Assembly: GCA_050251055.1 (NCBI GenBank) | Contig: JBFWNL010000005.1 | Coordinates: 226,451 to 290,450, forward strand | Length of the DNA stretch: 64,000 nt | Reading direction: 5' to 3' | DNA from: Bacteriovoracia bacterium | Lineage (GTDB): Bacteria; Bdellovibrionota; UBA1018; JBFWNL01 | Part shown: positions 6,325 to 47,095 of the stretch, piece by piece | Layout of the letters: each line of letters opens with the position of its first letter | Position numbering within the stretch: the stretch's first letter is position 1 | The notes under the pieces: model-generated | Database searches by the model: none | What the model saw: only the letters and a program-made list of their open reading frames with translations | Told to the model about the DNA's origin: nothing | Made by a program: the position numbers and the translations under genes

Positions 6325-6336
6325 ATAAATTTCTCC

Positions 6337-20674: not shown

Positions 20675-23124
20675 TGCTTGGGCCTTAGATTGAAGTTGAT
20701 GGTGCCACACTCACATCGAACTGTTTCGGGTTGCCCCTTAATGGGCGATACATAAAGCCATGCTTTGCACCCCCCACACTGGAGGGTTGCTATCAGAGCT
20801 TTGAACGCATCAAGAACCTTACGGAACTCGGGAGGCGAAAGATTGACCCACTCGTTGTAGTGAACCGACGCATTGACCGCCCATTGTTCAGCGTTTGTAG
20901 CCGTATACTTACTACCGAAGTCTGAACTCAGTGCCGACACCTTTTCAACCACGTCCTTCTGATTCCAAGAATTTGCTGCGGCATTGGCTTTCTTAAAGAT
21001 GTCTTTGATTCGACCAGCTACCGCTGGCATTAAATCACCCAGTTCGTAATTTGCAGTTGGCCGAGCTTCGACGGTAGCCCTTAGTTTGAAAGATAACTCT
21101 GCCATCAAAAACTCAAGGTAACGACGAAGGGTTCCAGCAGCGTCCGTAACCTTGCTTTCTCCTAGGTCTTTTTCAATTTCAGTCCACACTTCGCCCATGT
21201 CCCATGCTGCCGGGCCGTCAGCCACAGTCCATTTCCTGAAATGAAGAAGATTTTTGTTAGTCACAACACCTTCGAGACTTAGCTGTTTGCCCCAAACTTC
21301 ATCGTGCGTAGTAATGATGAGCTGCACACTCTGAAATTCAGTCTTCAATAACTTGCAAACCTCACGGCGGTGGCTTGAATCGACGGACATCAACACATCG
21401 TCCAGAAGGCATAGCGAGAAGGACTCTCCAAGTAGTCTTTTCGACAATGCTAAATAAAGGCAAAGGCCCATTCCATCTTGGTGGCCTTCGCTGTGATAGG
21501 CATTGGGCGGGAATTGTCCACGACCATAGAAATCAACTTCAAAATTGAGCGAGCCATCAGTGGGACTCAGCTTTGCCGAAAATCCCGCCTCGTCATCGCT
21601 GTTCAACATTTGATAGTAGCGGGCGAAATCCTTCTCAACCTGACTGTACAAAGTAGTTAGCGTTTTTTCGCTTACATTCGTAAAGTGAGCAAGAGTAGCT
21701 GTCGCAATCGCCGCTCGTTTCTTTTGGACATCATGCTCTGACCGAGCACTACGAAATAAGCGAAGTCTTTCATCCGCGAGAACAAGGTATTGTTTGGCAC
21801 CCTCTTCCGCAGTCAAATCCGGCAACTTATTTACTTCGGCCTCTAGGGTGTCCAAAAACCTTTTGGTGGTATCAGCGATACACGATTGAAGACCATTGAA
21901 GGCGTTCTTTGCACCGGCTAAGTTTTCAACCGGTCTCAACAACGACGCTTCTAAGTCACGAAGTTGAGATGCAGCTTCTTTAAGAGCCTTTTCGACTTCA
22001 ACCAGACCGAGAGTTTGAGCAACAGTCGTGAGTTGTTCAAAATCTGAGGCATTAGTACGAATTACCTGGACGGTTTCTGTTGCTGCTTTTTCGATGGCAG
22101 ACTTTACTGCGGCAGCCTGTTGCCCCTTCTTGATCTTTTCTTGAAGGTGCGTGCGGAGATCACCCTGATCCCATTCTTCGTCACAAAGAGGACAACTATC
22201 ATTTACGATTTTCAATAGGCCTTGCTCAAAAAATGTTTGCTGACTGAGACTTTGCAAGATTTCTGGATTCGACTCCAGGCTTATAATTGCATCAGAACCT
22301 TGCTTTTTTACGACCGAAGTTTTTCCCCAAGGTTTATCCAAATTAGTTTTCAGCTTTGACACTCGCACAGAGCAATCCGTTTTTGAAATCGTCCGTTTTT
22401 TTTCTTTCGAGTCGGAAGCAATGCCATCACTGACTTTGACATCAGCCGTAACATCGCTCAAAGCCGAAAGGCCGAGCAGTATTCGACGCTCGTTGACCGA
22501 CTTTAATAGAGCCTCCTTTGTGAGTTCGGGGAGTTTGAGGTGAGCAAGCAAGTCGGCTTTAGCCTTCGAGTGAGATGCGTCAGCGGCTTTTTCTTCACGA
22601 GCTGCAGTATTACTTGCCGTCTGCAGGCTCGCTCGTATTTTTCCGATGGAGTCTAATTTTAGGAGTTCTTGAACCTCTTTAGCTCTTTGGCCTGGCTCAG
22701 TTAAGATGAATCTCAAAATCTCTTTTCTCGAAAGCGAAAACTCGGGATGGGAAGTAATGAATTGAAGAGCCGCCTTAGTCTCAAGAGTTTCGGGAGTTAC
22801 CGTTGGTTTATTGTGAGCAGCGACGGTGCGCTCGACTGAAAACTTCGTTCCAGAAGGAAGGGACAAGTCCAGCACAACACGACACTTTTCTGGTGCGTCC
22901 TTACAATCGACATGAGGAGCATGACTCTTTACTGATACACCCGATGATCCTACCCCTGTCAGCCGTGTAATTGTGCCAGTTAGACCAAATTCGATCGCGT
23001 CGATAACTCCGCTTTTGCCACTTCCATTGGGACCTTTAATTACTAAGCTCTGTCCCCCAATAGGAATTTGAAGTTTTCTTATACCTCTGAAGTTCTCGAT
23101 AAGAATTGATTCCACCTTAATCAC
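20671..23124 (-). CDS. Rad50/SMC-like ABC ATPase with Zn-hook and extra C-terminal domain
   Basis: IENFRGI, Walker A GPNGSGKS, coiled coils around CPLC hook, signature HSEG, Walker B/D-loop LLDDVLMSVD, H-loop TTHD. Confidence 0.9.
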   Translation of the reverse strand: MIKVESILIENFRGIRKLQIPIGGQSLVIKGPNGSGKSGVIDAIEFGLTGTITRLTGVGSSGVSVKSHAPHVDCKDAPEKCRVVLDLSLPSGTKFSVERTVAAHNKPTVTPETLETKAALQFITSHPEFSLSRKEILRFILTEPGQRAKEVQELLKLDSIGKIRASLQTASNTAAREEKAADASHSKAKADLLAHLKLPELTKEALLKSVNERRILLGLSALSDVTADVKVSDGIASDSKEKKRTISKTDCSVRVSKLKTNLDKPWGKTSVVKKQGSDAIISLESNPEILQSLSQQTFFEQGLLKIVNDSCPLCDEEWDQGDLRTHLQEKIKKGQQAAAVKSAIEKAATETVQVIRTNASDFEQLTTVAQTLGLVEVEKALKEAASQLRDLEASLLRPVENLAGAKNAFNGLQSCIADTTKRFLDTLEAEVNKLPDLTAEEGAKQYLVLADERLRLFRSARSEHDVQKKRAAIATATLAHFTNVSEKTLTTLYSQVEKDFARYYQMLNSDDEAGFSAKLSPTDGSLNFEVDFYGRGQFPPNAYHSEGHQDGMGLCLYLALSKRLLGESFSLCLLDDVLMSVDSSHRREVCKLLKTEFQSVQLIITTHDEVWGKQLSLEGVVTNKNLLHFRKWTVADGPAAWDMGEVWTEIEKDLGESKVTDAAGTLRRYLEFLMAELSFKLRATVEARPTANYELGDLMPAVAGRIKDIFKKANAAANSWNQKDVVEKVSALSSDFGSKYTATNAEQWAVNASVHYNEWVNLSPPEFRKVLDAFKALIATLQCGGCKAWLYVSPIKGQPETVRCECGTINFNLRPKQ

Positions 23125-24796: not shown

Positions 24797-26020
24797 TCAC
24801 GACATTCTCGCACTTGGGGCGGTGTTTTTGAATTCAAGTAGGTTCACTACATGATCCATAACTTGATCGTCACTAGTGTGTAAGAGTCGCATTGTTTCTG
24901 TTGCACCTTGCTCGTCGATACCTGCCATACGGATATATCGCTGCATGGTTTTAAGATCCTTCCATCCACAAATTTTCATGACCGTCGTCGGTGGAACACC
25001 ACTCGAAATTATCTGAGTGGCGAAACACGCTCTGAGGGTATGAAATTTTATGGACGTGAGGCCCTCGTCCAAACAGAACTTACGAAGTACAGCAGCTTGC
25101 ATTCCACGATCCCAATCACCGAATCTAGGAAGGACGTGGGACGAATTCCCAGTCTCCTTCTTAAGCTCTACTAAAAACCAGTAGAGTTCACCCGATATTG
25201 GGACAGTCCGCCAATACCCACCTTTAGTTGGCCCAGTGGCTTTGAACCGACCGTTGTAGGTTAGTACAACTCGAATCAAGCCATAGCGCCGCTTGTTTGT
25301 AGGTAATGACTCTTGCTTGCGAGCCTCCTCCTCAGGAATCAATTCAACGTTTGCCCAAGGAAGTGCATGAAGCTCTCCCGACCGCATTCCAGTCAAGAGC
25401 GCAACAGTCCACACCTTATACCAACGATGCCCACGCTCTTTGGATCGGGTCAGAAAGGTCTTGATTTCGGAAAGAGTGAGAATTTCAGGAAGCTTTTCTT
25501 CCTTATCTTTTCCAATATCAATTCCGTAAACCGGGCTGTGATGCACCCCGGTTACGTATCTCTCTTCAATTCCCCAACAGTAGATTTTGTTAATTGTGTT
25601 CCTAAGCTTTCTCAAAAAAGCGGTGTTCTTTCCTGCTTCCTGAGCAAACCTGAGAACTTCTCTACCGTCTCCTCGGTTTAAATCCTCGGCTGATTTTCCG
25701 AACCAAATCCGAGTCCAGCCTCGGACAAGAGCTGCGTAATCGACGATTGTAGTCCTGACCAAGTTTTCAAGACCGTAGGTGAGCTTGTCGTGCTCCCAAT
25801 CGTCGATAATTTCTTCCCAAGTTGCTCCCTTAAGTTCAAGTTTTGCAACTTGCTTTGAAAGCTCCAAGTGGAGTTTCTTTTCTTCTTGAATTGCCGCTTG
25901 CTCACTAGCCAGTCCTCTCATTCGACGCTGTAGTCGAAGATTTGGTCGTCTGCTGCTTTTCACGTCAACATACGCTTGCCAAAGGACGTGACCATTATGT
26001 TCATATTGACTTACTGCCAT
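24797..26020 (-). CDS. Tyrosine integrase of the ICE
   Basis: GMRSGE, FHTLR..FAT, CGWKDLKTMQRY (Trp at the second His position); N-terminal arm-binding-like region. Confidence 0.93.
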   Translation of the reverse strand: MAVSQYEHNGHVLWQAYVDVKSSRRPNLRLQRRMRGLASEQAAIQEEKKLHLELSKQVAKLELKGATWEEIIDDWEHDKLTYGLENLVRTTIVDYAALVRGWTRIWFGKSAEDLNRGDGREVLRFAQEAGKNTAFLRKLRNTINKIYCWGIEERYVTGVHHSPVYGIDIGKDKEEKLPEILTLSEIKTFLTRSKERGHRWYKVWTVALLTGMRSGELHALPWANVELIPEEEARKQESLPTNKRRYGLIRVVLTYNGRFKATGPTKGGYWRTVPISGELYWFLVELKKETGNSSHVLPRFGDWDRGMQAAVLRKFCLDEGLTSIKFHTLRACFATQIISSGVPPTTVMKICGWKDLKTMQRYIRMAGIDEQGATETMRLLHTSDDQVMDHVVNLLEFKNTAPSARMS

Positions 26021-32629: not shown

Positions 32630-33322
32630 TTAAAACCTCGGGAGCTGAAATGAAGTGTCTTGTTGTTTCATCGCGATACTGAGAGCGTTGGAGGTCTCAA
32701 GAGCATTTCGCGTTTGCTCTTTATCTTTCCTGTTCTCAATTGCGAGCGACTGCGCCTGTATCTTAAGCCCCGTCGCTTGTGCGCGAAGACTTTGGTTCAT
32801 AACGGTCAACATCACTCCCAAGGACTGAGCTGTGAGCTTCTGAGCACCGCCAGGAGAAACAAGCCTGCTCATCTGCTTGATGCTTTCGCCAATTTCGTCG
32901 ACATCTCGGGTGTACTTATAAATGGAGTTATTGAGTGCGACGGCTTCTGCAACACTTTGATCTGAGTCGTGTTGAACCTGGGCATCTCTTGATGGCACAA
33001 TCACTCCATAAATACGCTCCAAAGCTCGCACCGCTTCCTGTACTCGCTCCCAGTCCCGGTAAATACCCGGATCCGTCCCTGGCCCAATCGTCCTCATGAG
33101 GTTTAAAGAGTCGTTGATCCCTCGGTTGATGTCCCGAATGAGGGAGAGGGTGTCCTGACCGGTTCCCATAATTGATCTGAGCTGGGCCAACTGCTGAATT
33201 GCGTTTGCAAGAATCTGTGTGAGCACCGCAACATCGCCACCGAAAAGATCCGCTTTTGCTTGGTGAATGGGAGAAAGCAGGAAAGTAACAGCGAGGATAA
33301 ATGTGGAAATCTTTTTCTTCAT
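32630..33322 (-). CDS. VirB5/TrbJ-like protein
   Basis: Signal peptide (AKA|DLFGGD), Gln-rich helices, position after VirB4. Confidence 0.6.
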   Translation of the reverse strand: MKKKISTFILAVTFLLSPIHQAKADLFGGDVAVLTQILANAIQQLAQLRSIMGTGQDTLSLIRDINRGINDSLNLMRTIGPGTDPGIYRDWERVQEAVRALERIYGVIVPSRDAQVQHDSDQSVAEAVALNNSIYKYTRDVDEIGESIKQMSRLVSPGGAQKLTAQSLGVMLTVMNQSLRAQATGLKIQAQSLAIENRKDKEQTRNALETSNALSIAMKQQDTSFQLPRF

Positions 33323-35736
33323 GAACTCTCCTTTTCTGAAGCCGCGACTCCGCGGGGGAATAGTTCGGCTAGTTTTTTCAGCCGATCGACATGCGAAAGA
33401 GACGGATGGGAAGAAGTATGCTCATCAAGTGCAGCAAGATCTTTTGGGTCTGTGGTGGCAATCCAGTATTCAAGGGGCGTAGATTCAATGACGGCGACCG
33501 TCCGATTTGCCTGAGCCAAGAGGAATGCTTCGGAGTAACGCCCTTTGTCTTGTCTCAAAGACTTCACCAAAGAAATCTCGTTGGGGTTTAGGTTCAACAC
33601 CTCTTCTAATCGTTTTCCGTCGACCTGTTGCTGAAGGAGAAGCCACTTAATTGAACAGTTAGGAAGAATGGCTCCAGCGATCTTCGACTTCGCGAAGTCA
33701 TCCAGATCCTGAGAAATCGCGATTGCCGAGGCGTAGTATTTTCTAAAAGTTCGAAAAACCTCTTCGATGAATACAAGGCCAGAATCATTCTTCAGAAGTT
33801 TCCAGCACTCATCAAAAACCAGAAATTTCATTTTTCCGCGATCCCTTTGAATTTCGCGCCAAACGAAGTCTGTGATCATAAACAGGCAAACCGCTTGCAG
33901 ATCTGGAAACGATTCCATGCCCTTTAAGTCAAAAGCCACAATGGGGCGGTTCAGCTCGATGTTTGTTTCACGATCCAAGAACTGACCAAACGGCGTGTTT
34001 CCGCACCACGGCGACAGAATCCGCCCATAACGCTTCACCTCAACGTCGGGATGAGCGAGAAGTAAATCCTGTAGATCGCTGAGCCTAGGAGTTCGCGATT
34101 TTTCGTAAACGCGTTGGATTGCCTCTTCAATTTCAGCACGATGGAGTTTTGGAATGCGCGCCTCATGATCCTCTTTGGTCATGAGTTCAATAAGTGAGAC
34201 AAAGAATTTGATTTTCTGACTGGATGGGGCCGATTCACCTGGTCCAAGATCAAAGGGGTTAAGGCAAAGCCCCGCACCGATACCGAGAAGGACATATTGA
34301 CCATCGAGGTTTTCGCAAAGTTTTTTGTAGGACCCTCCTATATCGACGAAGTAGATCTTAGGGGCTTCTTTGAGTGTTTGTAGGAGCAATAAGTTGGTAA
34401 GGAAGCTTTTGCCTGACCCACTGGACCCCGAAATTAACTGATTAAAATTCGTTAGGCCGGGGTCAAACGGATCGAAGCCCAAGAGACTCCCCATTCTTGA
34501 ACGAAGGAGGATACTTGGCTTCGACATGCCCTCCCAGGGGCCATATAGAGGTAGAAGATCTGCCAGGTTAGAAGTCTTTACGGCCTTTGCTCGCTCTTTA
34601 GATCTGGTGTTAGGGATCGCGCATTCCGAAAAGATGTCAAAAGCCGCGATGCTTTCTTCCATTCCCTCGGCACCTGAGAGACTTCGAATGCACATAAGAG
34701 TTTGAGCGACCTTTTCTTCAAGCTCTCCCAGGTTGTTTGACCTCAAAAGGATGTTCAGACTGACACGAAAAACGTTTTCTCCTTGAGCAATCATTTGCTC
34801 TAAGAGGGTTTCTAAGTCCTGAAGTTTTGCTTCACTTTCGATGTCAGAAACACCAGATCGTTTTCCGCGTGCCATCGAAAATGCTAAACGTCTCTGGGTT
34901 TGGAGCTTTTCAAGCTCCTTAGTTTGATTTGGTACATGGACGGTCAAAAACAACCGTGAGTTAAATGGTAAGTCCCTCAACGCAGAGGCCATTCCGGCTA
35001 CCGTTCGATCAGGCAGAGTTTTTAGAGAAATAAGGCGATGGTGAACTTCACCGATTGAGAATCCGCGTTCGTAGACGCCTACGTCGCTGAACAGAAGCGA
35101 AGAGCGAATATCTTCCGGATCATATGTACCTAAAGAAACCGGTCGATCAGGATTCCACTGCTCATAGATAAGCTCCAAAACTCGATTGGTTTCAATACGT
35201 CTTACTTCCAAGCCCAGCGAAGCAATCGACTGAGAGACGTTCTCTCGAAGTTGCTCTAAAAGTTCGACTTCTCGAACCATTCGAGCATCGGCAATCTTTG
35301 GAAAGTTAGCGGGCTTCGACAAAAGCTTCGGTGCATCGACCAATGATCTCGTCAGAGGCTTTCTGACAAGAAGAAGGAGTTCGTGCTTGGGTATGAAGCC
35401 TTCGCCATCGAGAGTTCTAAGTTTTTCGATGCGTGCCCGGGTTAACGCTTGTGCTGCTTCTGTACTGGATTCTTGGATAAGAGATTCATGCACATCTAGA
35501 ACAGATGCGTTTCCACCCTTAATATCCTGGACAAACTGGAGGTCTATCTCAGGAGGAAGCCCGTTTAGAAATTGGGCCACGCCTTGGGTGATGGAATTGA
35601 TTGTTTCATCTGAGATACACGAAATATCGGTTGGCTTGATCTTAAGTGCAAATCCCAGAGATCCATCTTGGAACAAAAGGCAGTCTTGTTCGATGCCCCA
35701 AAGTTCCAGTTCATCTGCAAGTGCTAGAGAATTCAT
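33319..35736 (-). CDS. virB4: VirB4/TraC conjugation ATPase
   Basis: Walker A GSSGSGKS, FVDIGGSY, LNPF, Walker B FDECW, RTFRKY...ISQ. Confidence 0.93.
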   Translation of the reverse strand: MNSLALADELELWGIEQDCLLFQDGSLGFALKIKPTDISCISDETINSITQGVAQFLNGLPPEIDLQFVQDIKGGNASVLDVHESLIQESSTEAAQALTRARIEKLRTLDGEGFIPKHELLLLVRKPLTRSLVDAPKLLSKPANFPKIADARMVREVELLEQLRENVSQSIASLGLEVRRIETNRVLELIYEQWNPDRPVSLGTYDPEDIRSSLLFSDVGVYERGFSIGEVHHRLISLKTLPDRTVAGMASALRDLPFNSRLFLTVHVPNQTKELEKLQTQRRLAFSMARGKRSGVSDIESEAKLQDLETLLEQMIAQGENVFRVSLNILLRSNNLGELEEKVAQTLMCIRSLSGAEGMEESIAAFDIFSECAIPNTRSKERAKAVKTSNLADLLPLYGPWEGMSKPSILLRSRMGSLLGFDPFDPGLTNFNQLISGSSGSGKSFLTNLLLLQTLKEAPKIYFVDIGGSYKKLCENLDGQYVLLGIGAGLCLNPFDLGPGESAPSSQKIKFFVSLIELMTKEDHEARIPKLHRAEIEEAIQRVYEKSRTPRLSDLQDLLLAHPDVEVKRYGRILSPWCGNTPFGQFLDRETNIELNRPIVAFDLKGMESFPDLQAVCLFMITDFVWREIQRDRGKMKFLVFDECWKLLKNDSGLVFIEEVFRTFRKYYASAIAISQDLDDFAKSKIAGAILPNCSIKWLLLQQQVDGKRLEEVLNLNPNEISLVKSLRQDKGRYSEAFLLAQANRTVAVIESTPLEYWIATTDPKDLAALDEHTSSHPSLSHVDRLKKLAELFPRGVAASEKESS

Positions 35737-37995: not shown

Positions 37996-38151
37996 CTAAA
38001 ATCGTTGAATTTGAAACCAATGCTTTTGAAAGTACTGATCTTTCATTTCCCGCAATGCTTGTTCTTGCTCGTAGGCCAATGCGTTTTGCTCTTGGATGAT
38101 TCCAAACACGCGTTTGGCTAGGTAAGAAAAGCCGCTAATGACCTTTTTCAT
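37996..38151 (-). CDS. Small hypothetical protein (51 aa, absent from ORF track)
   Basis: MKKVISGFSYLAKRVFGIIQEQ...; TAATG overlap with upstream gene, GGAGG RBS. Confidence 0.6.
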   Translation of the reverse strand: MKKVISGFSYLAKRVFGIIQEQNALAYEQEQALREMKDQYFQKHWFQIQRF

Positions 38152-38357
38152 TAGGCAACCTCCAATTCCTTAAATAGGTTGGTGCGTTTGAACTCGGGTC
38201 CGAGTTCTCGAAGAACCGTGTCAGGAAACTGGACGTAGTATTCCTCGTTTCCAAATTCCGGGGCGTAGTTGCAAGATGCGCAGTGAGAGTAACTTTTTAA
38301 CCTCTCATACGCATTGTCTCCGCAACGTGGACAGCAGCTCAGACTAATCGGCTTCAC
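38151..38357 (-). CDS. Zn-ribbon small protein, first gene of transfer operon
   Basis: CPRCG...HCASCNY. Confidence 0.7.
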   Translation of the reverse strand: MKPISLSCCPRCGDNAYERLKSYSHCASCNYAPEFGNEEYYVQFPDTVLRELGPEFKRTNLFKELEVA

Positions 38358-38493
38358 TTACTTTCTCTCTTTCCGAGGGAATCAAAACTGGGGATCAGTT
38401 TTGTTCTTCCCTCAATAAGGTAGTTGCAAGAAAGTGAGGTGTTTGTGCCAGGTGCCGCTAAGGGTTCGAATCAAATTGAAGTTTTGAAATTCT

Positions 38494-38635
38494 CGCGCAA
38501 AAAATGCGGAAAATGTTCAGGCAAAAATGCGCGAGATGTTGCGCACGTAAAACACTAAGTGACTATGATCATTGATGACTTTAAAAATTTTCATGTGCGC
38601 AGATTTCTGCGCACTTGCGCACCAAAAGTTGCGCA
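38494..38635. promoter_or_regulatory. Cluster of TGCGCA palindromes (candidate enhancer sites)
   Basis: GTGCGCAGA-TT-TCTGCGCAC 38595-38614; TGCGCG-N6-TGCGCA 38528-38545; further TGCGCA at 38616 and 38630. Confidence 0.7.
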
Positions 38636-38656
38636 TTTTTGCGAATCGAAGAATAG

Positions 38657-38702
38657 TAAAAAGAAAAGAAAAACCCGCAATGGATCCAGTCCATCACGGG
38701 TT
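38657..38702 (-). terminator. Intrinsic terminator of signalling operon
   Basis: Minus-strand AACCCGTGATGGA-CTGGA-TCCATTGCGGGTT followed by TTTCTTTTCTTTTT. Confidence 0.85.
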
Positions 38703-38730
38703 AAGCGTATGAATAGAAGTTTTTGTTTAA

Positions 38731-40086
38731 CTAAGCTTCAAGGCGACCCAAAACCGCGCGTAAGGTACTTTCTTTCATTCCCAAACGGGCTGCTGCCTGC
38801 CTTTGAGATCCCGCGGTTTTTACTGTGCTAAGAATGAAAGCTTCTTTTTCAGCACGATGACGGGCATCTAGATCGGCCAGGGTGGAAGGCGGATTGATCT
38901 GAAGATCAATATCTCGAAATCTTTGATCTAGTTCAGAAGGACCAATAATTGAATCTGATGAGTTCACTGCCAACTGGCTAACACAGCCTTCAAGCTCACC
39001 AACATTGCCAGGCCAAGGATAGCTTTCGAGTATTCGAATTGCCTTAACTCGAAACGATTTTCTCTTTCCGGTCTCCTTTAAAAACCGTTGGCAGAAATGT
39101 TCGACAAGCAAACCAATGTCTTCCGGACGTTCTCGAAGAGGTGGAACGTCAATGGTCAGAAATTTCAGTCGGTAATATAGGTCTGGCAAAAACGTGCCAT
39201 TTTCTAAACGATCAATCAAATCAGGCTTAGACGCCGCAATGATACGGCAAGAAATATTCGTTTCAACTGTAGCTCCAACTCTTCGGATTTTCTTTTCTCG
39301 AATCGCTCTGAGAAGCGCGGCCTGAGCCTTAAGACTTAAGTGATGGACTTCGTCGAGAAACACGGTGCCGGTCCCGGCCATCTCCAAGATACCAACTTTT
39401 CTGTTCGCTGCTCCTGTGAAAGCACCTTTTTCGTAGCCGAAAAGTTCTGATTCGACCAAATTTCCATCTGCGAATGCCGCGCAATTTACAGAGAAGAGCT
39501 GTTCCTTAGGTCCTCCGTGAATTGCTTTTGCTACCAACTCTTTTCCAGATCCGGTTTCGCCCAGAATTAGCACTGGTGCCGAATTTGAACGGTAAGAAAG
39601 GCATTTTTGAGCGACCTCTGCCATCTTCTGAGATTGACCGATCATCCCGACAGACTTGAGCAGCTCCGAGTTATAGGCTTTGTTTACAGTAGCCTTGAAG
39701 AGTTTCAAACTTTCATCGTATCTCTTACACGCTAGCTCTAATGCCGACTTTAAAGTTTCAAGGTCTTCGTCCTTATTGATGAAATCCACGGCGCCGAGCC
39801 TGTACATTTCTTTAAGCGCTTCTCGGGTATTATCGCACGAATATACGATAATAATCGTTTCGGCATTGATTTCGCGCATCTTTGCCGCCGTTATCGCTCC
39901 ATTCATTCGCGGCATTTGATAATCGAGGAGCACAACCGCGAAATCTCCTTCTGCGGCCGCCAATTTTGAAATTCCTTCTTCGCCCGAAGATGCGGTGTCT
40001 ACCCGGTAACCCCATTCTTCAAGTAAGGCCTCAGTGGCCTTCAAGTTAGAGACATCATCATCTACGGTTAAAATTCGGTATTTCAT
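38731..40086 (-). CDS. Sigma54-dependent (NtrC-family) response regulator
   Basis: Receiver LLDYQMP, GETGSGKE, intact GAFTGA, FLDE, DLYYRL, WPGNVGEL, Fis-type HTH. Confidence 0.96.
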   Translation of the reverse strand: MKYRILTVDDDVSNLKATEALLEEWGYRVDTASSGEEGISKLAAAEGDFAVVLLDYQMPRMNGAITAAKMREINAETIIIVYSCDNTREALKEMYRLGAVDFINKDEDLETLKSALELACKRYDESLKLFKATVNKAYNSELLKSVGMIGQSQKMAEVAQKCLSYRSNSAPVLILGETGSGKELVAKAIHGGPKEQLFSVNCAAFADGNLVESELFGYEKGAFTGAANRKVGILEMAGTGTVFLDEVHHLSLKAQAALLRAIREKKIRRVGATVETNISCRIIAASKPDLIDRLENGTFLPDLYYRLKFLTIDVPPLRERPEDIGLLVEHFCQRFLKETGKRKSFRVKAIRILESYPWPGNVGELEGCVSQLAVNSSDSIIGPSELDQRFRDIDLQINPPSTLADLDARHRAEKEAFILSTVKTAGSQRQAAARLGMKESTLRAVLGRLEA

Positions 40087-41522
40087 ACGCTCATTTCCCT
40101 TAAGGATTCTTGGAAACGTGGTTCAGCTTCAGGTTGAAACTGAATTCTAAATTCTGTGCCGACACTAAGCGCGCTATTGACTGCAATGGTAGCTTCGAAA
40201 TCGTCGCACAGTTTTTTTACAATTGTGAGGCCTAGTCCTGTCCCTCTAGCTGGTTTGGTCGTGAATTCGCCGTCGAAGATTTTATTAAGATGCTCTGTAG
40301 GAATGCCAGCACCATTGTCTTTAACTGTAAGGGTGGGATAGCCCTCTAAAGCCGAAACCAAAATTTCAATTCTTCCCGTATTGTTTTCTACGGCATCTAA
40401 GGAATTTCGAACTAAGTTGTCGATGATTCTGTAAAATTGGACCTTTGGAATCTTTGCGAATGCAGAGTTGGTTTCTATAGTGCAAGTAACTTCAATCCCA
40501 CGGACGTGAAAGTCCGGAGTTTTTTTAAGATCGTTAACGAATTCGGCCGCCTCGTGGCTTGGATCGCAACCTTCCAGGAGTACTCCTGAATTATGAAGAC
40601 CCGGTCCGATAACTTGAATCTGTCGAAGGATGTCACCCATTCTTTCCAGCGATCTTTGAGTTAGTTTTAATAGAACTGGATCAGCTAAGCCGGTGCGATT
40701 TGCCCTTGCGGCAAGAACGGTTAGAAACTTGGTTATTTGAGAGTACGGAGTTTTTAGGTCGTGCCCAATTTCTTTGACCATTGTCAGTTGTGTTTTCATT
40801 CGAGCGTCACGGGCCGCAATTTCGGTCAGCCGGGCAATGTCGAGGTGTAACTTGGAAACAGCCTGATCCACGGTCGTCATTTCGGTGAAAGGTACAAGGC
40901 TATTTTGTTGGGGATTAGTGGGAGTCTCTTTTATCCGCTTTGCCCATTTATCCATTGTGTCTTTTATCAAGGACACAGTTCGCTGTTGAGTTGATGAAAG
41001 GCCCAACGCAATAATAGAAAACACTACTCCTAAGAAAACTAAAAAGACGCTTAATAGCGGCCAGTTTTGTGGATTGTTAGTCCTCAGCTCGACATATCCG
41101 AATAAGCTCTCTTTAAGATCATCATTAAAATAAACCGGCTGAAGATAAGTAACGTACCCTGAAATCAAATCCCAACATGGCTTGCCAGGGGTTTTGCACT
41201 TGTTTGGAATATCGACCAAATCATTAGCGTAAATCGTTTTGTAATCGGGATCGCGAACAACCACGTATTCGCCTTCGCTGAGTCCTAAAGTTCGCTTCAT
41301 TTGAAATTGCGCATCGCGAATATTTTTATCTAAGATCATTGGTCTGAAAGCTCGTGCAACTGCTTGTGTAAGAGTTGAAATACGTGTTTCAGCCGAATGC
41401 ATCGAAAGGTAAAAGAAAAACGGAAGCGATACCGCAGCCGTCAGCGCTAAGCCTATCAAAGCCCACTTTTTTGATAAATGTTGCAATGCTGTAGAAAGGC
41501 TTTGCTGAACCGTGGGTTTCAT
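40083..41522 (-). CDS. Sensor histidine kinase
   Basis: Two TM segments flanking a ~110-aa periplasmic domain, HDLKTP H-box, NLVRNS, DNGAGI, GTGLGL. Confidence 0.93.
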
Positions 41523-43009
41523 TTGCCCGCCAATCCCTTGAAGCGGATTTTGGAGAAAGTCACTGATTCGTCGGAAGTTGGTATATCTCTAAAATCGAGT
41601 TCTGGACCCCCAATGGCCAAGGTAGACAGATGGAAGAGCGGAAGGACATGGCCCTTAATCGTTGCGTCGGTCATAATTGAGCGCATCATTTTGAGCCGTT
41701 TACTTGAGTCAGATTCTTTTCTCGCTGCATCCAATCGCGCAACGAACGGCTCATTTCCAGATCTAACAACAGGCGTATCACCTTCGAAGTAGTACGACAT
41801 CGCACCTTCTGGATCAGGATCGGCCATCCCCATAGTGCTGACATAAATGTCGTAATCACCTTTCCTTTTGTGTTCACCCAACTTATCGAGCGTCGTGAAG
41901 ATATATTCAGGCGCAATGCCTAAAGCATCAGTCAGAACGGCTTTGATGTTCTTTTGTAAGATGGGATTCACGCGAGTAGACGCGAGCAAAACTCTCAAAG
42001 GGGTCCGCTTGAATCGTTCAGGCATTGAATTGTTTGAGTTTGGAACTGGTGTAGGAAATGAATCGTCAAATAACTGATAGCCTATCGGGAACACTTGAGC
42101 GGTAGCGGAAAAGCCCGAAAGCCCTTCTGTGAGTTTGGTTCTGTTAATGCTCTTGTATAGATATCGAAATAAGGCCGTTCCATCTGCGGTTACAAAATTC
42201 TTAGATAGTTGAAGAAGAAAAATCTTATCTAAAGGACGAGTCCAAACTTCGTATTTTTTGCTTTTGTATGTCGACAGTAGGTCTCCCGGAATTAAAGAAT
42301 TTACTTCGACGAGATTTGCCCAGCTGTCCTCAAGCATCACTTTTTGCAAATCGAGGGTACCCTCTGGTTTCCGAATAATGATCTCCTCGGGCATTTTGTC
42401 ATTTCCGAAAATCCACTGAGGATTACGTTTTAAAACCAATTCTGCATTCGTGTCTTTGCTTAAGTAGAAAGCACCGGTTGTAGTGGAAAGGTCAACGTTA
42501 CCGTCAGCTTTCACCTTTAAGACGCCGAAGTTGGGTTCCGTAAGTTTTCCGAGAAGATTACTGGCGGACGTCGGTGTGGAGAGATGAAACTCAACTACGG
42601 ATTCGCTTGGAGCAGTTATGTCTTTAACAATATTTATAAGACTGCGCAGATCTTCCGGGTACTTTTTAAATCCTCGCTCGAAACTCTTTTTTACGTCAGC
42701 GGCAGTTAGTTTTGTGCCGTCCGACCATTTCACATCTTTTCGAAGCTTGAATCTGTAAACCTTTTCTGCGACTGCTTCCCACGATTCAGCGAGAGCGCCC
42801 ATGAATTGTTTGTCGTGGTCCCATTGTACGAGCCTCGACGCGAGTCCGTAAGATAGATCCATGTCCGGAATAGTTACAATCTGGACCGGATCCACCGGGT
42901 ACGAATACGACATGTAAGTTCGAACTTGTTTCATAGATCTCTTTTCAATTGCCTCTGCTGCCGAAACAAAAAATTGCACTGTCAGACACGCGAAAACCAA
43001 AAAACGCAT
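41519..43009 (-). CDS. Family-5 (OppA/DppA-like) periplasmic solute-binding protein, orphan
   Basis: Signal peptide, LAESWE...YRFKLRKDVKWSDGTKLTAADVKKSF, TGAFYL...LVLKRNP; no permease/ATPase nearby. Confidence 0.9.
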   Translation of the reverse strand: MRFLVFACLTVQFFVSAAEAIEKRSMKQVRTYMSYSYPVDPVQIVTIPDMDLSYGLASRLVQWDHDKQFMGALAESWEAVAEKVYRFKLRKDVKWSDGTKLTAADVKKSFERGFKKYPEDLRSLINIVKDITAPSESVVEFHLSTPTSASNLLGKLTEPNFGVLKVKADGNVDLSTTTGAFYLSKDTNAELVLKRNPQWIFGNDKMPEEIIIRKPEGTLDLQKVMLEDSWANLVEVNSLIPGDLLSTYKSKKYEVWTRPLDKIFLLQLSKNFVTADGTALFRYLYKSINRTKLTEGLSGFSATAQVFPIGYQLFDDSFPTPVPNSNNSMPERFKRTPLRVLLASTRVNPILQKNIKAVLTDALGIAPEYIFTTLDKLGEHKRKGDYDIYVSTMGMADPDPEGAMSYYFEGDTPVVRSGNEPFVARLDAARKESDSSKRLKMMRSIMTDATIKGHVLPLFHLSTLAIGGPELDFRDIPTSDESVTFSKIRFKGLAGK

Positions 43010-43021
43010 ACAACGCTTTCG

Positions 43022-43059
43022 TAGTAGGCATTTCGAAGGTGAATTCGAGATGCCTACTA
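43022..43059. repeat. 16-bp stem-loop between peptide gene and binding-protein gene
   Basis: TAGTAGGCATTTCGAA-ggtgaa-TTCGAGATGCCTACTA, one mismatch. Confidence 0.8.
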
Positions 43060-43072
43060 TTTCGATTTGGGT

Positions 43073-43216
43073 TTACTTTTCGCAGGTAGCGCCACTACCT
43101 GCTTCACGACTATGTTCTCCAGCCTGCGCGGCGAGCCCGAGAAGTGATTTCGCACCTCCAGAGAACGCAGTGAGTGCCAAAAGAACTGCTACGATTGACT
43201 TCTTGAGGAAAGACAT
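43073..43216 (-). CDS. Putative secreted precursor peptide (47 aa)
   Basis: GAAAGGGG RBS; MSFLKKSIVAVLLALTAFSGGAKSLLGLAAQA|GEHSREAGSGATCEK with Sec-like signal and AQA site; directly after YcaO gene. Confidence 0.75.
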   Translation of the reverse strand: MSFLKKSIVAVLLALTAFSGGAKSLLGLAAQAGEHSREAGSGATCEK

Positions 43217-43238
43217 AAAACCCCTTTCTTCCTCTACG

Positions 43239-44279
43239 TTATGGGACAAAATGCGGGAGAGAGCACAATGCCCTCCCTCCACAAACTTTTTCTAAATGTT
43301 CAAAGTTGATCCAGCCACGAGAAGCGGCCGCTTCCGCGCTTCCAAAAAATAGATCCTGCACTTCCTTGCTGGCGCAATGTGCGACGAAAAGAGGGCCAAA
43401 CTGGAAGTCAGAAAAAGAGCTTTTCGGCAGCTTGTTCTTCAGTGCTCTGGAGCGTTCATTCCAATTTCTTGATGCTGCTGAGAACAAAATCGAATTTCCA
43501 AACAACCAAGTAGGGAGCTTAGAGTGATATGCGTAGTAGACGGAGTGGCCTTCAGGGGAGCTTGGTTTGTCCAAATCAGGAGGAGAAATAAATCCTTGTT
43601 CAGCAAAATCGGCAATTCTGCAAACTTCGGCCAGCGCTCTTTCAATGGCTCCTCGCAGAGAACTCGATGAAGCTTGGGAGGAAAAAGCAAAACCATCTTT
43701 GTCCTGCAAAATGGTTACAACACTAGGTGCAGTTCCTAATGTTGAAGTCAAAATTCTGAGCTGGTTAAAGCGCGGTGCGAGGCTCAGTTCTTTTGATGCC
43801 CATTCAATTAGGTCTTTCGGTAAGGTGTGGGCGGCTATTTCGAGAAATGGGGTCTGACTGAGCCAATGGAGCAAAATTGAATCCCGCTCCAGTAGTTCCG
43901 TTTGCGCTGCCGCTCGAGCTTTCTGGGGAGTTAGATGCGCGGCCCAGCCGCTGGAAGACCTAAGGTCTGGATTGAGTTTCTTGGCTAATTTGAAAACACA
44001 ACGTTCAACCGCCTCTGAGATACTCTTCTGAAGCGCCAAAAGTTCAAAATCGCTTTCACCGTAACCGGATGCGACCACTTCGCCTTCAGCCTCAATCTTT
44101 GTCATGATCGAGTGCCTATTAAATCTGTAGCCCTGCATGCGTTTAGCGGGGCTAGAGGCAGTGATCTTGAATGTCAGAGGGGACAGACCGGGAAAAGTGA
44201 ATTGAACGCCCTTAAAGAATTCTGTGAGCTTTTGGCTTACGAGCACGGACCGGATGATTTCTATAATGCTCAGGCTCAC
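43239..44279 (-). CDS. Stand-alone YcaO-like enzyme (start revised to GTG 44279)
   Basis: SGYGES...ALQKSISEAVER, SSGWAAH...ELLERDS, AIERALAE ATP/Mg motifs; Pro-containing C-terminus LPHFVP; AAAGGAG RBS. Confidence 0.85.
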   Translation of the reverse strand: MSLSIIEIIRSVLVSQKLTEFFKGVQFTFPGLSPLTFKITASSPAKRMQGYRFNRHSIMTKIEAEGEVVASGYGESDFELLALQKSISEAVERCVFKLAKKLNPDLRSSSGWAAHLTPQKARAAAQTELLERDSILLHWLSQTPFLEIAAHTLPKDLIEWASKELSLAPRFNQLRILTSTLGTAPSVVTILQDKDGFAFSSQASSSSLRGAIERALAEVCRIADFAEQGFISPPDLDKPSSPEGHSVYYAYHSKLPTWLFGNSILFSAASRNWNERSRALKNKLPKSSFSDFQFGPLFVAHCASKEVQDLFFGSAEAAASRGWINFEHLEKVCGGRALCSLPHFVP

Positions 44280-44317
44280 AGGTACTCCTTTCAGAAAGTT
44301 CACTCGCGGAACATTAG

Positions 44318-44334
44318 AGCAACCCCTGAGCCAA
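44318..44334 (-). promoter_or_regulatory. Sigma54 -24/-12 promoter of the ycaO operon
   Basis: Minus-strand TTGGCTCAGGGGTTGCT, exact GG-N10-GC spacing. Confidence 0.8.
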
Positions 44335-44430: not shown

Positions 44431-44620
44431 AATGCGCAAGTTATTGCGCATTTAGTTCGAGATGATAGGGGCCTGTGGCGAAAAAGCTAAACGCTTCCAA
44501 ATAGATATGCGCAAGATAAAGAGGTGCGCAGGAAACTGCGCACCTCTAGACTGGCATCCTAAAAAAGCTATGGAAAACAAATATTTACCCAACCCACGAC
44601 CATGCGCAAGAAAGTGCGCT
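44431..44620. promoter_or_regulatory. TGCGCA-N6-TGCGCA palindromes (candidate enhancer sites)
   Basis: 44433-44450, 44525-44542 (11-bp perfect arms), 44603-44620 (one mismatch), half-site at 44508; 100-290 bp upstream of the sigma54 promoter. Confidence 0.75.
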
Positions 44621-44711: not shown

Positions 44712-45248
44712 CTACTTTAAGAACACTTCGTCAACTGGTGTTTTTGCGACATGGTTCACATAATTACTGAGCGTTTTCATCGCTACGCCGAGCATGACCT
44801 CTAAAACATGTTTTTGTGTATAGCCTTGAGAGAAAAAGGCGGAAAGGTCTTGCTCACTTGGATTACCTCTTGAAGAGACAATATTTTTTGTAAATGCGCC
44901 TAATGCGTTTAATTTGGGATCTGCAAGGGTAGCCCCCATCTTAATCTTCTCAATGCTATCAGAGTCCATTTTTGCAATATTTCTAGCCAACATAGAGTGC
45001 GCTGCTAAACAATAACCACACTCGTTTTCCTTGCTGACAGACAGAAGAACAACCTGTTGTTCGATGGGTGAAAACGACGTTTTTGAGAAAAAATCAGAAA
45101 GCGCGAGATAAGAACTTAATACCGCCTTACTCTCAGCCATGACTCCCATGAGATTAGGAACAAAAGACATGGCCCCCTTTACGCCTTCCAAAAGTGATTT
45201 GCTTTCACTTGGACTTGTTTCTGGTGAATGAACTTTAAAATCTGACAT
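44712..45248 (-). CDS. Carboxymuconolactone decarboxylase/AhpD-family protein
   Basis: FVPNLMGVMAES, ENECGYCLAAH, KTLSNYVNH. Confidence 0.9.
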   Translation of the reverse strand: MSDFKVHSPETSPSESKSLLEGVKGAMSFVPNLMGVMAESKAVLSSYLALSDFFSKTSFSPIEQQVVLLSVSKENECGYCLAAHSMLARNIAKMDSDSIEKIKMGATLADPKLNALGAFTKNIVSSRGNPSEQDLSAFFSQGYTQKHVLEVMLGVAMKTLSNYVNHVAKTPVDEVFLK

Positions 45249-45262
45249 GATTTTCTCCTTTT

Positions 45263-45292
45263 ACCCTAATGTTTATATGTAAACATTAGGGT
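45263..45292. promoter_or_regulatory. Operator palindrome 1 (probable MarR site)
   Basis: ACCCTAATGTTTA-TATG-TAAACATTAGGGT; 20-bp core identical at 59404. Confidence 0.8.
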
Positions 45293-45395
45293 GAGCAAGC
45301 GGTGAATTGCTTAAACGAGAATGAAGCGGCGCGGCTGGCTTCTTAGCTGGGATACCGCTTCAAGAAACGGACGAACAAAGCTACAATCAAACAAG

Positions 45396-45863
45396 ATGTC
45401 CGAGAAACGTAAGCCGCCCAAAAAACTTGCTGCCATGACGGAGCTTCTGGAAGATCCTCAAGTCCAGTCGTGGCTGGCTATTATGGGCGCCTTCAAATCT
45501 GTTTTGACTGAACTTGAAAAAGGTCTAATGGGTGACGGCTTACATGTTTCCAGGTTTCAAATTCTATTTTATCTTTACTTCCAGCCGCCGCTCTCTGCGG
45601 CTGATATTGCTCGAAAGCTTTTGGTGACTCGAGGGAATATTTCGATGTTTTTAAAGAGGCTTGAGAAGGACAAGCAAATCGTGGTTTGCCCAACCAGTCC
45701 TAGCATGCAAAGACCTCTTTACAGACTCAGTGAAGAAGCTGAACGTCAGTTCGAAAAAATCTTTCCCGACCATATCAAGAGGGTGAAAAAACTTGTTCCT
45801 GCTTTGCCTAAAGCGGTCGTTCAGTCTTTGCACAAGCTCGGCAAGGCTGATTCTGAAATCTAG
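45396..45863 (+). CDS. MarR-family regulator (start uncertain)
   Basis: SRFQILFYLYF..LSAADIARKLLVTRGNISMFLKRLEK. Confidence 0.88.
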   Translation: MSEKRKPPKKLAAMTELLEDPQVQSWLAIMGAFKSVLTELEKGLMGDGLHVSRFQILFYLYFQPPLSAADIARKLLVTRGNISMFLKRLEKDKQIVVCPTSPSMQRPLYRLSEEAERQFEKIFPDHIKRVKKLVPALPKAVVQSLHKLGKADSEI

Positions 45864-46303
45864 ATCGCAGCAATCGTTATCTGTTTTAGAGTTTGAAGCG
45901 AATCCTGTGGCAATACAGGCATGGAAGCTTTCACCCTCCGTATGTGAGCCGGCAGGAGTTTTTCGAAAAATGCGTTGCCTTTGATTGTAAGCATGTAACA
46001 CGGACGCTTTGCTGAAGATGATTCAGGGCACTTCGTCACAAGGCCATCTGCAATCATTCGCCGTAAAAACATAGACATGTTCGACCTGGTTACAAGCATT
46101 TTTCGTGAAAGCTCGATTGGAGCTAGAGACCCTTCAAAATAAAGAAAAAAGAGAAGCTGGAATCTTGAATAGGTGCAGCCATCTTTCAAGAGTGCTTCCT
46201 CAAAAGCTCTGTAAAGAGTTTGGAATGCGTTCATCAGGGCGCGCCACGATTCGACCTCCGATGACTTCAAGAGTGAAGATAGCTTTTTTTTTGAGGTTTT
46301 CAA
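45860..46303 (-). CDS. MarR-family regulator, paralog of the convergent gene
   Basis: SRFQLLFFLYF..LAPIELSRKMLVTRSNMSMFLRRMIADGLV. Confidence 0.88.
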   Translation of the reverse strand: MKTSKKKLSSLLKSSEVESWRALMNAFQTLYRAFEEALLKDGCTYSRFQLLFFLYFEGSLAPIELSRKMLVTRSNMSMFLRRMIADGLVTKCPESSSAKRPCYMLTIKGNAFFEKLLPAHIRRVKASMPVLPQDSLQTLKQITIAAI

Positions 46304-46306
46304 AAA

Positions 46307-47095
46307 CTACTTCACCTCGTTCAGGTTCCAGTCGTAATCGAGATAGGAAATTTTTGAAGATTTGAGAATGGCTTCTTTGGCTGACTGACTAAGATTACTT
46401 CTCTGAGCAAGGAACTGTCTTAAATCTTTTTCTTCGCCGAAATCCGATCCATACCACTTGAAAATCGATGAAAGATGGAGGGTGTTCGTGGCTTGATCAT
46501 ATTTATTGAAGCTAAAGTTATTCACAAAATGTCGGGCAGCCATTTCAAGTTGCTCATCGAGGCGACTCGCCTCAAACGGAACCCTCTGCAGCGGCGGACA
46601 GCCAATGGATGCGCAATTTACGGCAAAATGAATTCTTGGTTCTTTGTAATCTTTTCTGAGAATTTCATGCTCAATTCGGTCGAGGCTAGATTCCTCACCT
46701 AAAAATTGAAAAAACTTCATTTTCCAAGGATTCCCAAAAATCCCTCCAATCTTTTTAATCGAGGACACGGGATAATTTTCAACGACTAGCTGAAGAGTAA
46801 ACGAATTGTAAGCGTTAATAAGAAAAGCAATTTGCTCGTCTTTAGGCCAGGCCTTGAATCTACTGAGGCTAATCGCTGAAACTGACTTGTTAAACTCGAT
46901 GAGTTTTGAGGGGTCTTTTTTAAGGACCGCATACTTCACTTTTGTACTTTGGCCGGACTCAACAACATTCATCTCAAGCAGTTTTCGGTACACCGAGTAA
47001 TCGAAGGTATCGGTACTAGCGCGAACCGAAATTCCCCCTAAGGACAGAAAAATCATCAAAAAAGCAAAGTTGATTCTTGAGAGTCTAGACTTCAT
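46307..47095 (-). CDS. DUF547 domain protein
   Basis: AFLINAYN, LDRIEHEILR, EPRIHFAVNCASIGCPPL, SSIFKWY, YDWNLN. Confidence 0.92.
   Translation of the reverse strand: MKSRLSRINFAFLMIFLSLGGISVRASTDTFDYSVYRKLLEMNVVESGQSTKVKYAVLKKDPSKLIEFNKSVSAISLSRFKAWPKDEQIAFLINAYNSFTLQLVVENYPVSSIKKIGGIFGNPWKMKFFQFLGEESSLDRIEHEILRKDYKEPRIHFAVNCASIGCPPLQRVPFEASRLDEQLEMAARHFVNNFSFNKYDQATNTLHLSSIFKWYGSDFGEEKDLRQFLAQRSNLSQSAKEAILKSSKISYLDYDWNLNEVK

Follow-up and report, generated by a model that had tools for sequence, protein, structure and literature searches.

Five co-oriented genes on the minus strand of a 64,000-nt stretch of Bacteriovoracia DNA (contig JBFWNL010000005.1; hereafter the window, to whose full length all coordinates refer) form, as judged by comparison with homologous loci, one conserved module. 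It encodes a stand-alone YcaO enzyme, a small precursor-like peptide, an orphan solute-binding protein (SBP), a two-transmembrane sensor histidine kinase and an NtrC-type sigma-54 activator. The comparative data lend good support to the prediction that the activator recognizes TGCGCA-N6-TGCGCA dyads and thereby switches on the sigma-54 promoter of the operon that encodes it. On balance we lean, with modest confidence, towards a full five-step scenario in which the module would act as a self-activating peptide-signal circuit belonging to a conjugative-type type IV secretion system (T4SS) cluster of the Bdellovibrionota. Our confidence is graded: autoregulation is held more firmly than the whole mechanism, and the chemistry, the ligand of the SBP and cell-to-cell signalling are held less firmly.

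The initial annotation had described five co-oriented genes at 38731-44334, with a sigma-54 promoter 5' of ycaO and a terminator behind the last gene. All five indeed lie on the minus strand in the order and at the positions claimed, both flanking signals are present (the second as a terminator-like structure, a 13-pair hairpin with a T-run, at 38672-38702, minus strand, just 3' of the activator gene, identified by folding), and every named component type is matched by Pfam or by sequence features. The first gene (43239-44279) encodes a minimal stand-alone YcaO-domain protein of 346 residues ending in PHFVP, recognized by Pfam, fold and invariant motifs; translation probably begins with the GTG at 44279, in front of which stands AAAGGAG, the open reading frame (ORF) being readable from 44303. 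A gap of 22 nt separates it from an ORF for a precursor-like peptide of 47 residues (43073-43216), recognized by its position, by homologous small ORFs elsewhere and by profile search. After a further 63 nt follows the gene of an orphan periplasmic family-5 (cluster C) SBP of 496 residues with a signal peptide (41519-43009; Pfam and fold). Its 3' end overlaps by 4 nt the gene of the sensor histidine kinase (40083-41522; 479 residues, two transmembrane segments around a periplasmic loop of about 113 residues, recognized by HATPase_c and hydrophobic segments), which in turn overlaps by 4 nt the activator gene (38731-40086; 451 residues with a receiver domain, an AAA+ domain with GAFTGA and a C-terminal helix-turn-helix).

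The gene order in homologs, the check proposed with the initial annotation, proved to be conserved: YcaO, peptide, SBP, kinase and activator follow each other wherever a Bdellovibrionota locus has a contig of sufficient length (L011/L022, L012/L030, L013/L032, L020, L021, L023, L026, L028, L029, L031, L033, L037, L038, L039, L046, L050 and L053). A distant variant with 22-33% identity (L016) also keeps all five parts, a small secreted-peptide gene lying directly before ycaO. SBP, membrane kinase and bacterial enhancer-binding protein are co-encoded and kept together across the loci. A scan of species-representative genomes yielded 15 loci, one labelled Lysobacteraceae and 14 labelled Bdellovibrionota (as Bacteriovorax, Oligoflexia, Bdellovibrionia or Bdellovibrionales), and a metagenome scan added 12 further loci. 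The YcaO was found in 10 of the 41 related genomes searched. Within the phylum the distribution is patchy (23 of 401 genomes, 20 of 204 genera), which fits a mobile module.

Autoregulation is indicated by dyads that change in step with the recognition helix of the activator. In the window these dyads (all minus strand) stand on both sides of the module. Upstream of ycaO lie a distal copy with one mismatch to TGCGCA-N6-TGCGCA (AGCGCACTTTCTTGCGCA, 44603-44620), which is a candidate enhancer (upstream activating sequence), a perfect copy recovered by genome-wide pattern search (TGCGCAGTTTCCTGCGCA, 44525-44542), and a proximal perfect copy about 100 nt upstream of the sigma-54 promoter (TGCGCAATAACTTGCGCA, 44433-44450). 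Downstream lie another perfect copy (TGCGCAGAAATCTGCGCA, 38596-38613), adjoined by an N8 variant at 38616-38635, and a copy with one mismatch about 80 nt upstream of the promoter-like element of the transfer operon (TGCGCAACATCTCGCGCA, 38528-38545). The perfect sequence occurs at six sites in the 3.77 Mb of the genome, three of which flank the module and three of which lie inside coding regions; 28 sites carry one mismatch, two of them flanking the module. At homologous loci dyads stand 100-270 nt upstream of the ycaO promoter, and their sequence differs by locus. Among the 12 loci with a readable activator C-terminus, four dyad classes match four recognition-helix classes: helices (N/K)ES(S/T)LR (KESTLR in the window) go with TGCGC[AG]-N6-[TC]GCGCA, P(A/R)(T/S)TL(R/K)S with GACGA...TCGTC, PS(K/L)LHYY with TTCAA...TTGAA, and P(T/P)STFYD with dyads of the TTCCGGAA type.

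The presumed target of this control is the promoter TGGCTCAGGGGTTGCT (44318-44333, minus strand), 39 nt before the ycaO start and with one mismatch to TGGCAC-N5-TTGCW. Taken alone, such a match is not above chance (34 matches with at most 2 mismatches in the window, 29 expected). It is counted as real because it is conserved across loci, a canonical sigma-54 promoter of the TGG[CT]-N8-TTGCT type being located 30-70 nt before ycaO in 23 of the 24 loci with upstream sequence. The genome carries a single rpoN gene. The three perfect dyads elsewhere were considered as members of the regulon and set aside, all being inside coding regions: two fall in paralogous DksA/TraR-like genes, where they encode MR[MI]RLRN, and the third in an ORF on contig C2. 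The two DksA/TraR-like zinc-finger genes stand in tandem at L035 (G000:C6:86000-96000, 4181-4657 and 5107-5517), and their dyads are taken as chance matches to the operator. The dyad at 44525-44542 also forms a hairpin and could terminate the upstream gene at 44712-45248.

The same dyads point to a second target. The initial annotation had placed the module directly upstream of the transfer operon of an integrative and conjugative element, and this holds in substance: T4SS genes, an integrase and a serine recombinase are located downstream, but neither element ends nor a relaxase were identified, no family match to the latter occurring among the window proteins scanned, which cover part of the ORFs. 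The T4SS-type operon begins with a gene for a Cys-rich, zinc-ribbon-like protein of 68 residues (38151-38357, minus strand) and continues with lipoproteins, a pilin-like protein, a TraL-like protein, TraC/VirB4 (33319-35736), TrbI and an FtsK-like ATPase. T4SS genes occur within 7 kb of the module at 13 loci, in two arrangements, the remaining loci having short flanks: they lie downstream of the activator in the window, L029, L032, L039, L050 and L053, and are divergent from ycaO in L021, L022, L023/L051, L024, L045, L046 and L047. In all six tandem loci examined (the window, L020, L029, L032, L039 and L050) the dyad type of the respective locus is found 80-230 nt upstream of the T4SS promoter region, and in L022 dyads of its own class likewise precede that region. 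From this we infer that the activator controls the T4SS operon.

The promoter of this operon is unusual. A search with the clade consensus gave no canonical sigma-54 promoter for it at 38357-38730 or elsewhere in 24000-46000. Instead, a promoter-like element TGGCAC-N15-TTGCA (38425-38450, minus strand) shows perfect sigma-54 hexamers that are 10 nt too far apart. The N15 spacing recurs in eight further loci (L022:4867, L023:1507, L024:4562, L029:12837, L032:7347, L038:14724, L039:10192 and L050:4891), while L020:9388 has N14 and L045:375, L046:6462 and L047:452 have N3. A conserved GTGAGAGG and a hairpin follow downstream of the element. In L022 an additional canonical N5 promoter with its own dyads faces the T4SS side. 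A sigma-70 or extracytoplasmic function (ECF) promoter was considered and rejected: TTGGCA-17-TGCAAT would be possible for the N15 class and is impossible for N3. We know of no promoter class that explains both spacings. In L022, three more dyads of the same class are located downstream of the activator gene (13372-13558), which hints at one more target operon in that locus.

The enzyme of the module is, on sequence and fold, a true but divergent, minimal, stand-alone YcaO. Pfam YcaO (PF02624) matches it with E 2.2e-11 and 44.1 bits against a cut-off of 25.7, over profile positions 113-257 of 325 only, and a genome-wide search repeats this match at the same strength; TIGR03604 reaches 35.8 bits against a cut-off of 219. 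Two ExxER motifs (E89, E92, R93 and E128, E131, R132) are invariant in 100 relatives and align to EAIER and EIIERD of MJ1094; in YcaO enzymes the ExxE(R) motifs serve in ATP/Mg2+ binding. The AlphaFold2 model has a predicted local distance difference test (pLDDT) value of 96.5, and its top 40 Foldseek matches in the PDB are all YcaO structures, at 12-15% identity, the best being the M. kandleri YcaO (6ci7; E 4.3e-9, TM-score 0.58). The family profile matches MJ1094 (2.6e-11), M. kandleri YcaO, E. coli YcaO, MusD, TruD, McbD and LynD. Of 1.84 billion representatives searched with the profile, 91 came out as relatives at E <= 1e-30 and 351 at E <= 1e-10; the full-length relatives among the 150 listed almost all have 300-390 residues, and the neighbours in the protein atlas are unnamed YcaO-like clusters, mostly from Bdellovibrionota.

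The 47-residue ORF is a real, conserved gene as far as its sequence comparison goes, and it has a precursor-like design: it is short, lies next to the enzyme gene and combines a conserved leader with a variable core. A Shine-Dalgarno-like GGAAGAAAGGGG precedes its ATG, and such a sequence was present on all four of the small-ORF copies found first. It has no family match in Pfam or NCBIfam. Its product shows a signal-peptide-like N-terminus, the conserved KSLL motif, AQA, a variable middle and a C-terminal GSGATCEK. The gap between YcaO and SBP genes holds a small ORF in all loci, and a profile search of 5.8 billion proteins found 15 relatives (E 4e-14 to 3e-4), all of them 'hypothetical' or unnamed. 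An alignment of 15 short-class precursors shows a common plan in every sequence, namely MSxxK, about 14 hydrophobic residues, S-G/S-x-K/R-x-L-L, an A-x-A-like site and a Gly-rich end. L25 is nearly invariant, and the middle varies in length and sequence; among close relatives GG[ST]CE is kept and the middle part drifts. Ten of the 15 carry Cys among their final five residues (G-[ST]-C-x, GCACH, GCTGT). The protein at the corresponding position in L046 carries a textbook signal peptide (APAMA, then QEA), which supports the reading of the short peptides' N-terminus as a Sec leader.

A modelled complex of YcaO, ATP, Mg and precursor supports binding of the peptide's conserved motif by the N-terminal domain of the enzyme. 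Its score was 0.61 (0.60, 0.61 and 0.70 in the three runs), in comparison with 0.01 at best in the three controls; among solved complexes 58 of 80 attain that mark, among mismatched pairs 2 of 110, counts that are only rough here because own alignments were supplied and small molecules included. Contacts agree by at least 69% between runs, the pLDDT of the partner is at least 63, and the tightest contacts join peptide residues 21-30, the motif around L25, to YcaO residues 12-22, 39-42, 58-60 and 79-83, which belong to the N-terminal helix and strands. The N-terminal 84 residues of the YcaO may, going by the model, take over leader binding.

These data bear on two alternatives. The small ORF might not be the substrate at all: the YcaO would then modify another protein, for instance the SBP or some part of the T4SS, and the peptide would be an unmodified secreted ligand or a small membrane protein. 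We regard this as improbable. YcaO roles outside RiPPs, the peptides that are synthesized ribosomally and modified post-translationally, are noted in the accessible text of PMC8442711, secreted proteins of 100-120 residues take the place of the peptide in some loci, and the second minimal YcaO of the genome is found beside another two-component system with an unassigned 219-residue ORF before it; against this stand the modelled peptide-YcaO binding, predicted far above its controls, and the adjacency of ycaO and peptide genes in all loci, even where their order is swapped. Alternatively, the product could be an antimicrobial RiPP, an azoline-containing linear peptide used as a weapon, with SBP, kinase and activator merely auto-inducing its production, as in the case of nisin. 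A YcaO next to a Gly/Ser/Thr/Cys-rich core does resemble the linear azol(in)e peptides, the fold matches include McbD, and the host phylum is predatory. However, the operon lacks an immunity gene, an exporter, a leader protease and a dehydrogenase, the cores are very short with one or two possible ring positions, and the conserved partner of the module is the T4SS operon. We therefore give this alternative very little credence.

The second YcaO just mentioned, a minimal paralogue of 345 residues, is encoded outside the window on contig C5 (L049:6863-7900); behind the 219-residue ORF, it faces an OmpR-type regulator and a histidine kinase. At L019 and L034 YcaO-like genes are likewise paired with kinases. 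Minimal YcaOs beside two-component systems may, judging from these gene neighbourhoods, be a wider theme in the phylum.

The remaining three proteins would supply reception and response. The SBP matches SBP_bac_5 (E 4.6e-29) in its N-terminal part only, and its AlphaFold2 model (pLDDT 87.8) finds NikA, OppA, CntA and MppA at E 1e-29 to 1e-28, together with AgaA and AapF, all about equally well. The absence of an ABC permease, which had been reported for this locus, is borne out: the nearest BPD_transp_1 gene on the contig is more than 100 kb away, and no permease appears in any homologous locus map made with the window proteins. Eleven family-5 SBPs of the genome score above the cut-off, the module SBP being the most divergent. 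The kinase matches HATPase_c (E 1.4e-21) and has two hydrophobic segments around about 113 residues. The activator shows a receiver domain, Sigma54_activat (E 3.9e-53), a lid domain and an intact EKGAFTGA. LuxQ and LuxO models match weakly among the module proteins.

SBP and kinase genes are adjacent in every complete locus, the distant L016 variant included, and from this fixed adjacency, with its start/stop overlap in the window, the SBP is predicted to be a co-receptor of the kinase. The same observation argues against a pheromone-import scenario, in which the SBP would hand the peptide to a chromosomal Opp/Dpp permease, after the model of enterococcal PrgZ, and the kinase would sense something else. 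In its favour, four other family-5 SBPs of the genome adjoin permeases that could be borrowed, and AapF (7kz9), a family-5 SBP capturing a signalling molecule, is among the fold matches; the operon, on the other side, encodes no cytoplasmic peptide receptor. Import is accordingly quite improbable, and co-reception by SBP and kinase is the reading adopted here.

In the favoured circuit, the cytoplasmic YcaO would first bind the K/R-x-L-L motif of the precursor through its N-terminal domain, as the complex model suggests, and would activate, at the expense of ATP, an amide of the backbone close to the Gly-rich C-terminus. Most probably a thiazoline or an oxazoline would arise at the end with G-[ST]-C or G-T-G, and it would not be oxidized further in the absence of a dehydrogenase. 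Second, Sec would carry the peptide to the periplasm by means of the signal-peptide-like segment, cleavage probably occurring after A-x-A, as far as the sequence indicates. Third, the SBP would capture the peptide and, as co-receptor, switch the two-transmembrane kinase, a step to which the conserved gene order points. Fourth, the activator would bind the dyads and drive its own sigma-54 promoter, closing a positive feedback loop. Fifth, the same activator, acting at identical dyads before the T4SS operon, would couple the DNA-transfer machinery to the peptide signal, in line with the comparison of loci. The peptide would either exit the cell, which would make this true quorum sensing, or act in the periplasm of its producer.

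Several observations weigh against this scenario. With respect to the enzyme, the C-terminus reads LPHFVP and not PxPxP (family consensus N-x-x-P-H-x-V-x, with H343 nearly invariant), and a C-terminal PxPxP has been tied to azoline formation in the accessible part of 10.1101/2025.07.11.664356. No gene for an E1-like/Ocin-ThiF-like or RiPP recognition element (RRE) partner is present in the operon, and neither TfuA (PF07812) nor a SagB-type dehydrogenase (TIGR03605) has a match in the genome, which is 93.5% complete. Without partner, TfuA or dehydrogenase the reaction chemistry is a guess; the simplest guess from the sequence is an azoline at a C-terminal Cys, Thr or Ser of the peptide. With respect to the substrate, five of the 15 precursors have no Cys in the last five residues (L021 GGHGA, L029 GGTGM, L031 GGTGI, L013 APSSG, L039 GNTGI), and L027/L028, L041, L043 and L046 encode a secreted protein of about 100-120 residues where the short peptide is expected, so that not every locus encodes a short product. 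The complex model leaves the core (residues 37-47) without a confident placement, and since peptide-bound YcaO structures exist in the PDB (6peu, 4v1t, 6gos), from which the window YcaO is very distant, the model could partly rest on memory. With respect to control, the otherwise collinear L050 (G113:C1) keeps its dyads and lacks the sigma-54 core before ycaO, apparently through a deletion of about 17 bp relative to the window, and the N15, N14 and N3 spacings at the T4SS element are noncanonical beside N5, which makes sigma-54 dependence there putative. The SBP gene of L013/L032 (6633-8097) is split into two ORFs by a frameshift, reflecting either decay or an assembly error. Sequencing runs with this stretch comprise two DNA runs only, from one landfill-metagenome study that is possibly its source, and no RNA run.

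Further points of this kind concern ligand and export, and they bear on a cell-autonomous alternative. The best TM-score of the SBP (0.80) is with the metal-staphylopine binder CntA; that with NikA is 0.75. An assignment of the ligand class from SBP sequence or fold was attempted and given up, peptide and metal-chelate binders not being separable in this way (NikA/CntA about equal to OppA). With about 14 residues or more left after processing, the peptide is large for crossing the outer membrane passively, and the operon has no gene for an exporter. Alternatively, the peptide might stay in the periplasm of its producer and report an environmental condition rather than density; an azoline, thiol or His-bearing tail would react with a metal, an oxidant or pH, and the SBP and kinase would read its state. 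The Sec-type leader, the lack of an exporter or outer-membrane component, the closeness of the SBP to CntA and NikA together with its best partial NCBIfam matches, which are nickel and opine-metal binders, and the His or Cys in most precursor cores are in accordance with such a periplasmic sensor. In contrast, what it would switch on is its own operon and the T4SS operon rather than genes for metal or redox functions; His and Cys are not shared by all cores, and the SBP fold resembles OppA-type peptide binders to about the same degree. We consider it unlikely, though worth bearing in mind. The most far-reaching version of the favoured circuit is an unrecognised Gram-negative peptide pheromone system on mobile elements of the Bdellovibrionota, with a Sec-exported ribosomal peptide modified by a minimal YcaO, extracytoplasmic reading by a dedicated SBP, kinase and activator, auto-amplification and gating of conjugation. 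We put this forward tentatively, with confidence short of even. The same reading would bring enhancer-dependent promoters whose -24/-12 hexamers stand 10 nt farther apart, or 2 nt closer together, than they should.

Among known systems, staphylococcal agr resembles the module in organization, being one self-activated operon with a precursor, a modifying enzyme, a membrane kinase and a regulator that feeds back on its own promoter; its signal is a thiolactone peptide. The likeness is limited to circuit logic. None of the five proteins matches the AgrB or AgrD families, and the module differs in its YcaO enzyme, Sec-like leader, additional periplasmic SBP, sigma-54 activator as regulator, Gram-negative host and T4SS operon as output. 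LuxP-LuxQ and CBP-ChiS also use a periplasmic binding protein as kinase co-receptor in quorum or oligomer sensing; their ligands, however, are AI-2 and chitin oligosaccharides, with the synthase outside the receptor operon, whereas the candidate ligand here is a ribosomal peptide. The timing of transfer by a signal-sensing module of the mobile element itself is known from pCF10 PrgZ, ICEBs1 PhrI and Ti-plasmid TraR, PrgZ being moreover an orphan OppA-like SBP. In contrast, the peptides of those conjugation systems are unmodified, imported and act on cytoplasmic regulators, and the hosts are Gram-positive, or acyl-homoserine lactones are used in Gram-negatives; the present module would sense at the surface through a kinase. 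Methanobactin operons with MbnE likewise pair a heterocycle-bearing ribosomal peptide with a dedicated OppA/NikA-like SBP, but MbnE serves copper uptake with a TonB receptor, the enzymes are MbnBC, and neither a kinase nor a sigma-54 activator is included; the module, for its part, has no metal-uptake genes.

The regulator AioR of the arsenite sensor AioX-AioS-AioR is sigma-54 dependent. In this system periplasmic binding protein, transmembrane kinase and regulator form one sensing unit and, as in our module, work without a transporter, as far as the accessible portions of PMC7565993 and PMC5908839 describe it. AioX differs in belonging to another SBP family and in sensing an external inorganic oxyanion, whereas the candidate ligand of the module is encoded in its own operon. 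The YcaOs of bottromycin and streptamidine (PMC8442711) and of daptides (10.1101/2025.07.11.664356) resemble ours in lacking a fused E1-like protein or RRE and in having a short precursor adjacent; in the accessible text of both sources such stand-alone pathways modify the peptide at or near a terminus, and form antibiotic-type clusters in actinobacteria that also encode proteases, exporters and tailoring enzymes. The module YcaO is shorter than these (346 residues) and part of a signalling operon that contains no tailoring genes. The initial annotation knew of no described system with this architecture, and we found none in the open-access literature either; the clade might figure in the supplementary YcaO networks that accompany PMC8442711 and 10.1101/2025.07.11.664356. 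By analogy, the circuit logic is agr-like, the receptor logic AioXSR/LuxPQ-like and the theme that of pheromone-timed conjugation, none of these systems being homologous as a whole.

Self-contained modified-peptide signal operons are textbook knowledge in Gram-positives and hardly known in Gram-negatives, which mostly use small diffusible molecules. If the scenario is true, the module would be a compact Gram-negative counterpart of the autoinducing-peptide circuits, would assign a signalling role to the YcaO enzyme family, and would reveal how, in a predatory phylum, a mobile element times the building of its transfer machinery. With its five genes, one promoter and one operator, it would also serve as a portable switch of minimal size that responds to a peptide. 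The classes of operators and recognition helices, which vary together, constitute a ready set of orthogonal regulator-operator pairs, and the mis-spaced sigma-54-like element before the transfer operon is a promoter-recognition puzzle of its own.

Folding further revealed a strong stem-loop of 17 pairs between the peptide and SBP genes (43021-43060, minus strand), and a comparable hairpin is found behind the peptide gene in seven of the 14 loci folded, the window included. Bacteriocin structural genes are known for a comparable effect of such stem-loops on transcript ratios; by analogy, this one may raise the ratio of peptide to receptor transcript. To the left of the T4SS genes the window shows hallmarks of mobile elements, namely genes for a tyrosine integrase (24797-26020), an HTH_3 regulator, an SMC/AAA_23-like protein of 817 residues (20671-23124), a ParB-like protein (13111-14223) and the large serine recombinase (9789-11606); kdpA and kdpB are located at 4261-8028. 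On the other side, upstream of the module (44712-47095), lie an AhpD/CMD-like gene (a weak match that stays under the cut-off), genes for two divergent MarR-family regulators and one for a DUF547 protein, followed by a fusion of a VTT domain with a pyridine-nucleotide-disulfide-oxidoreductase and by a radical-SAM DUF3641 gene. A transfer-messenger RNA at 63268-63618 is the only tRNA-type gene in the window.

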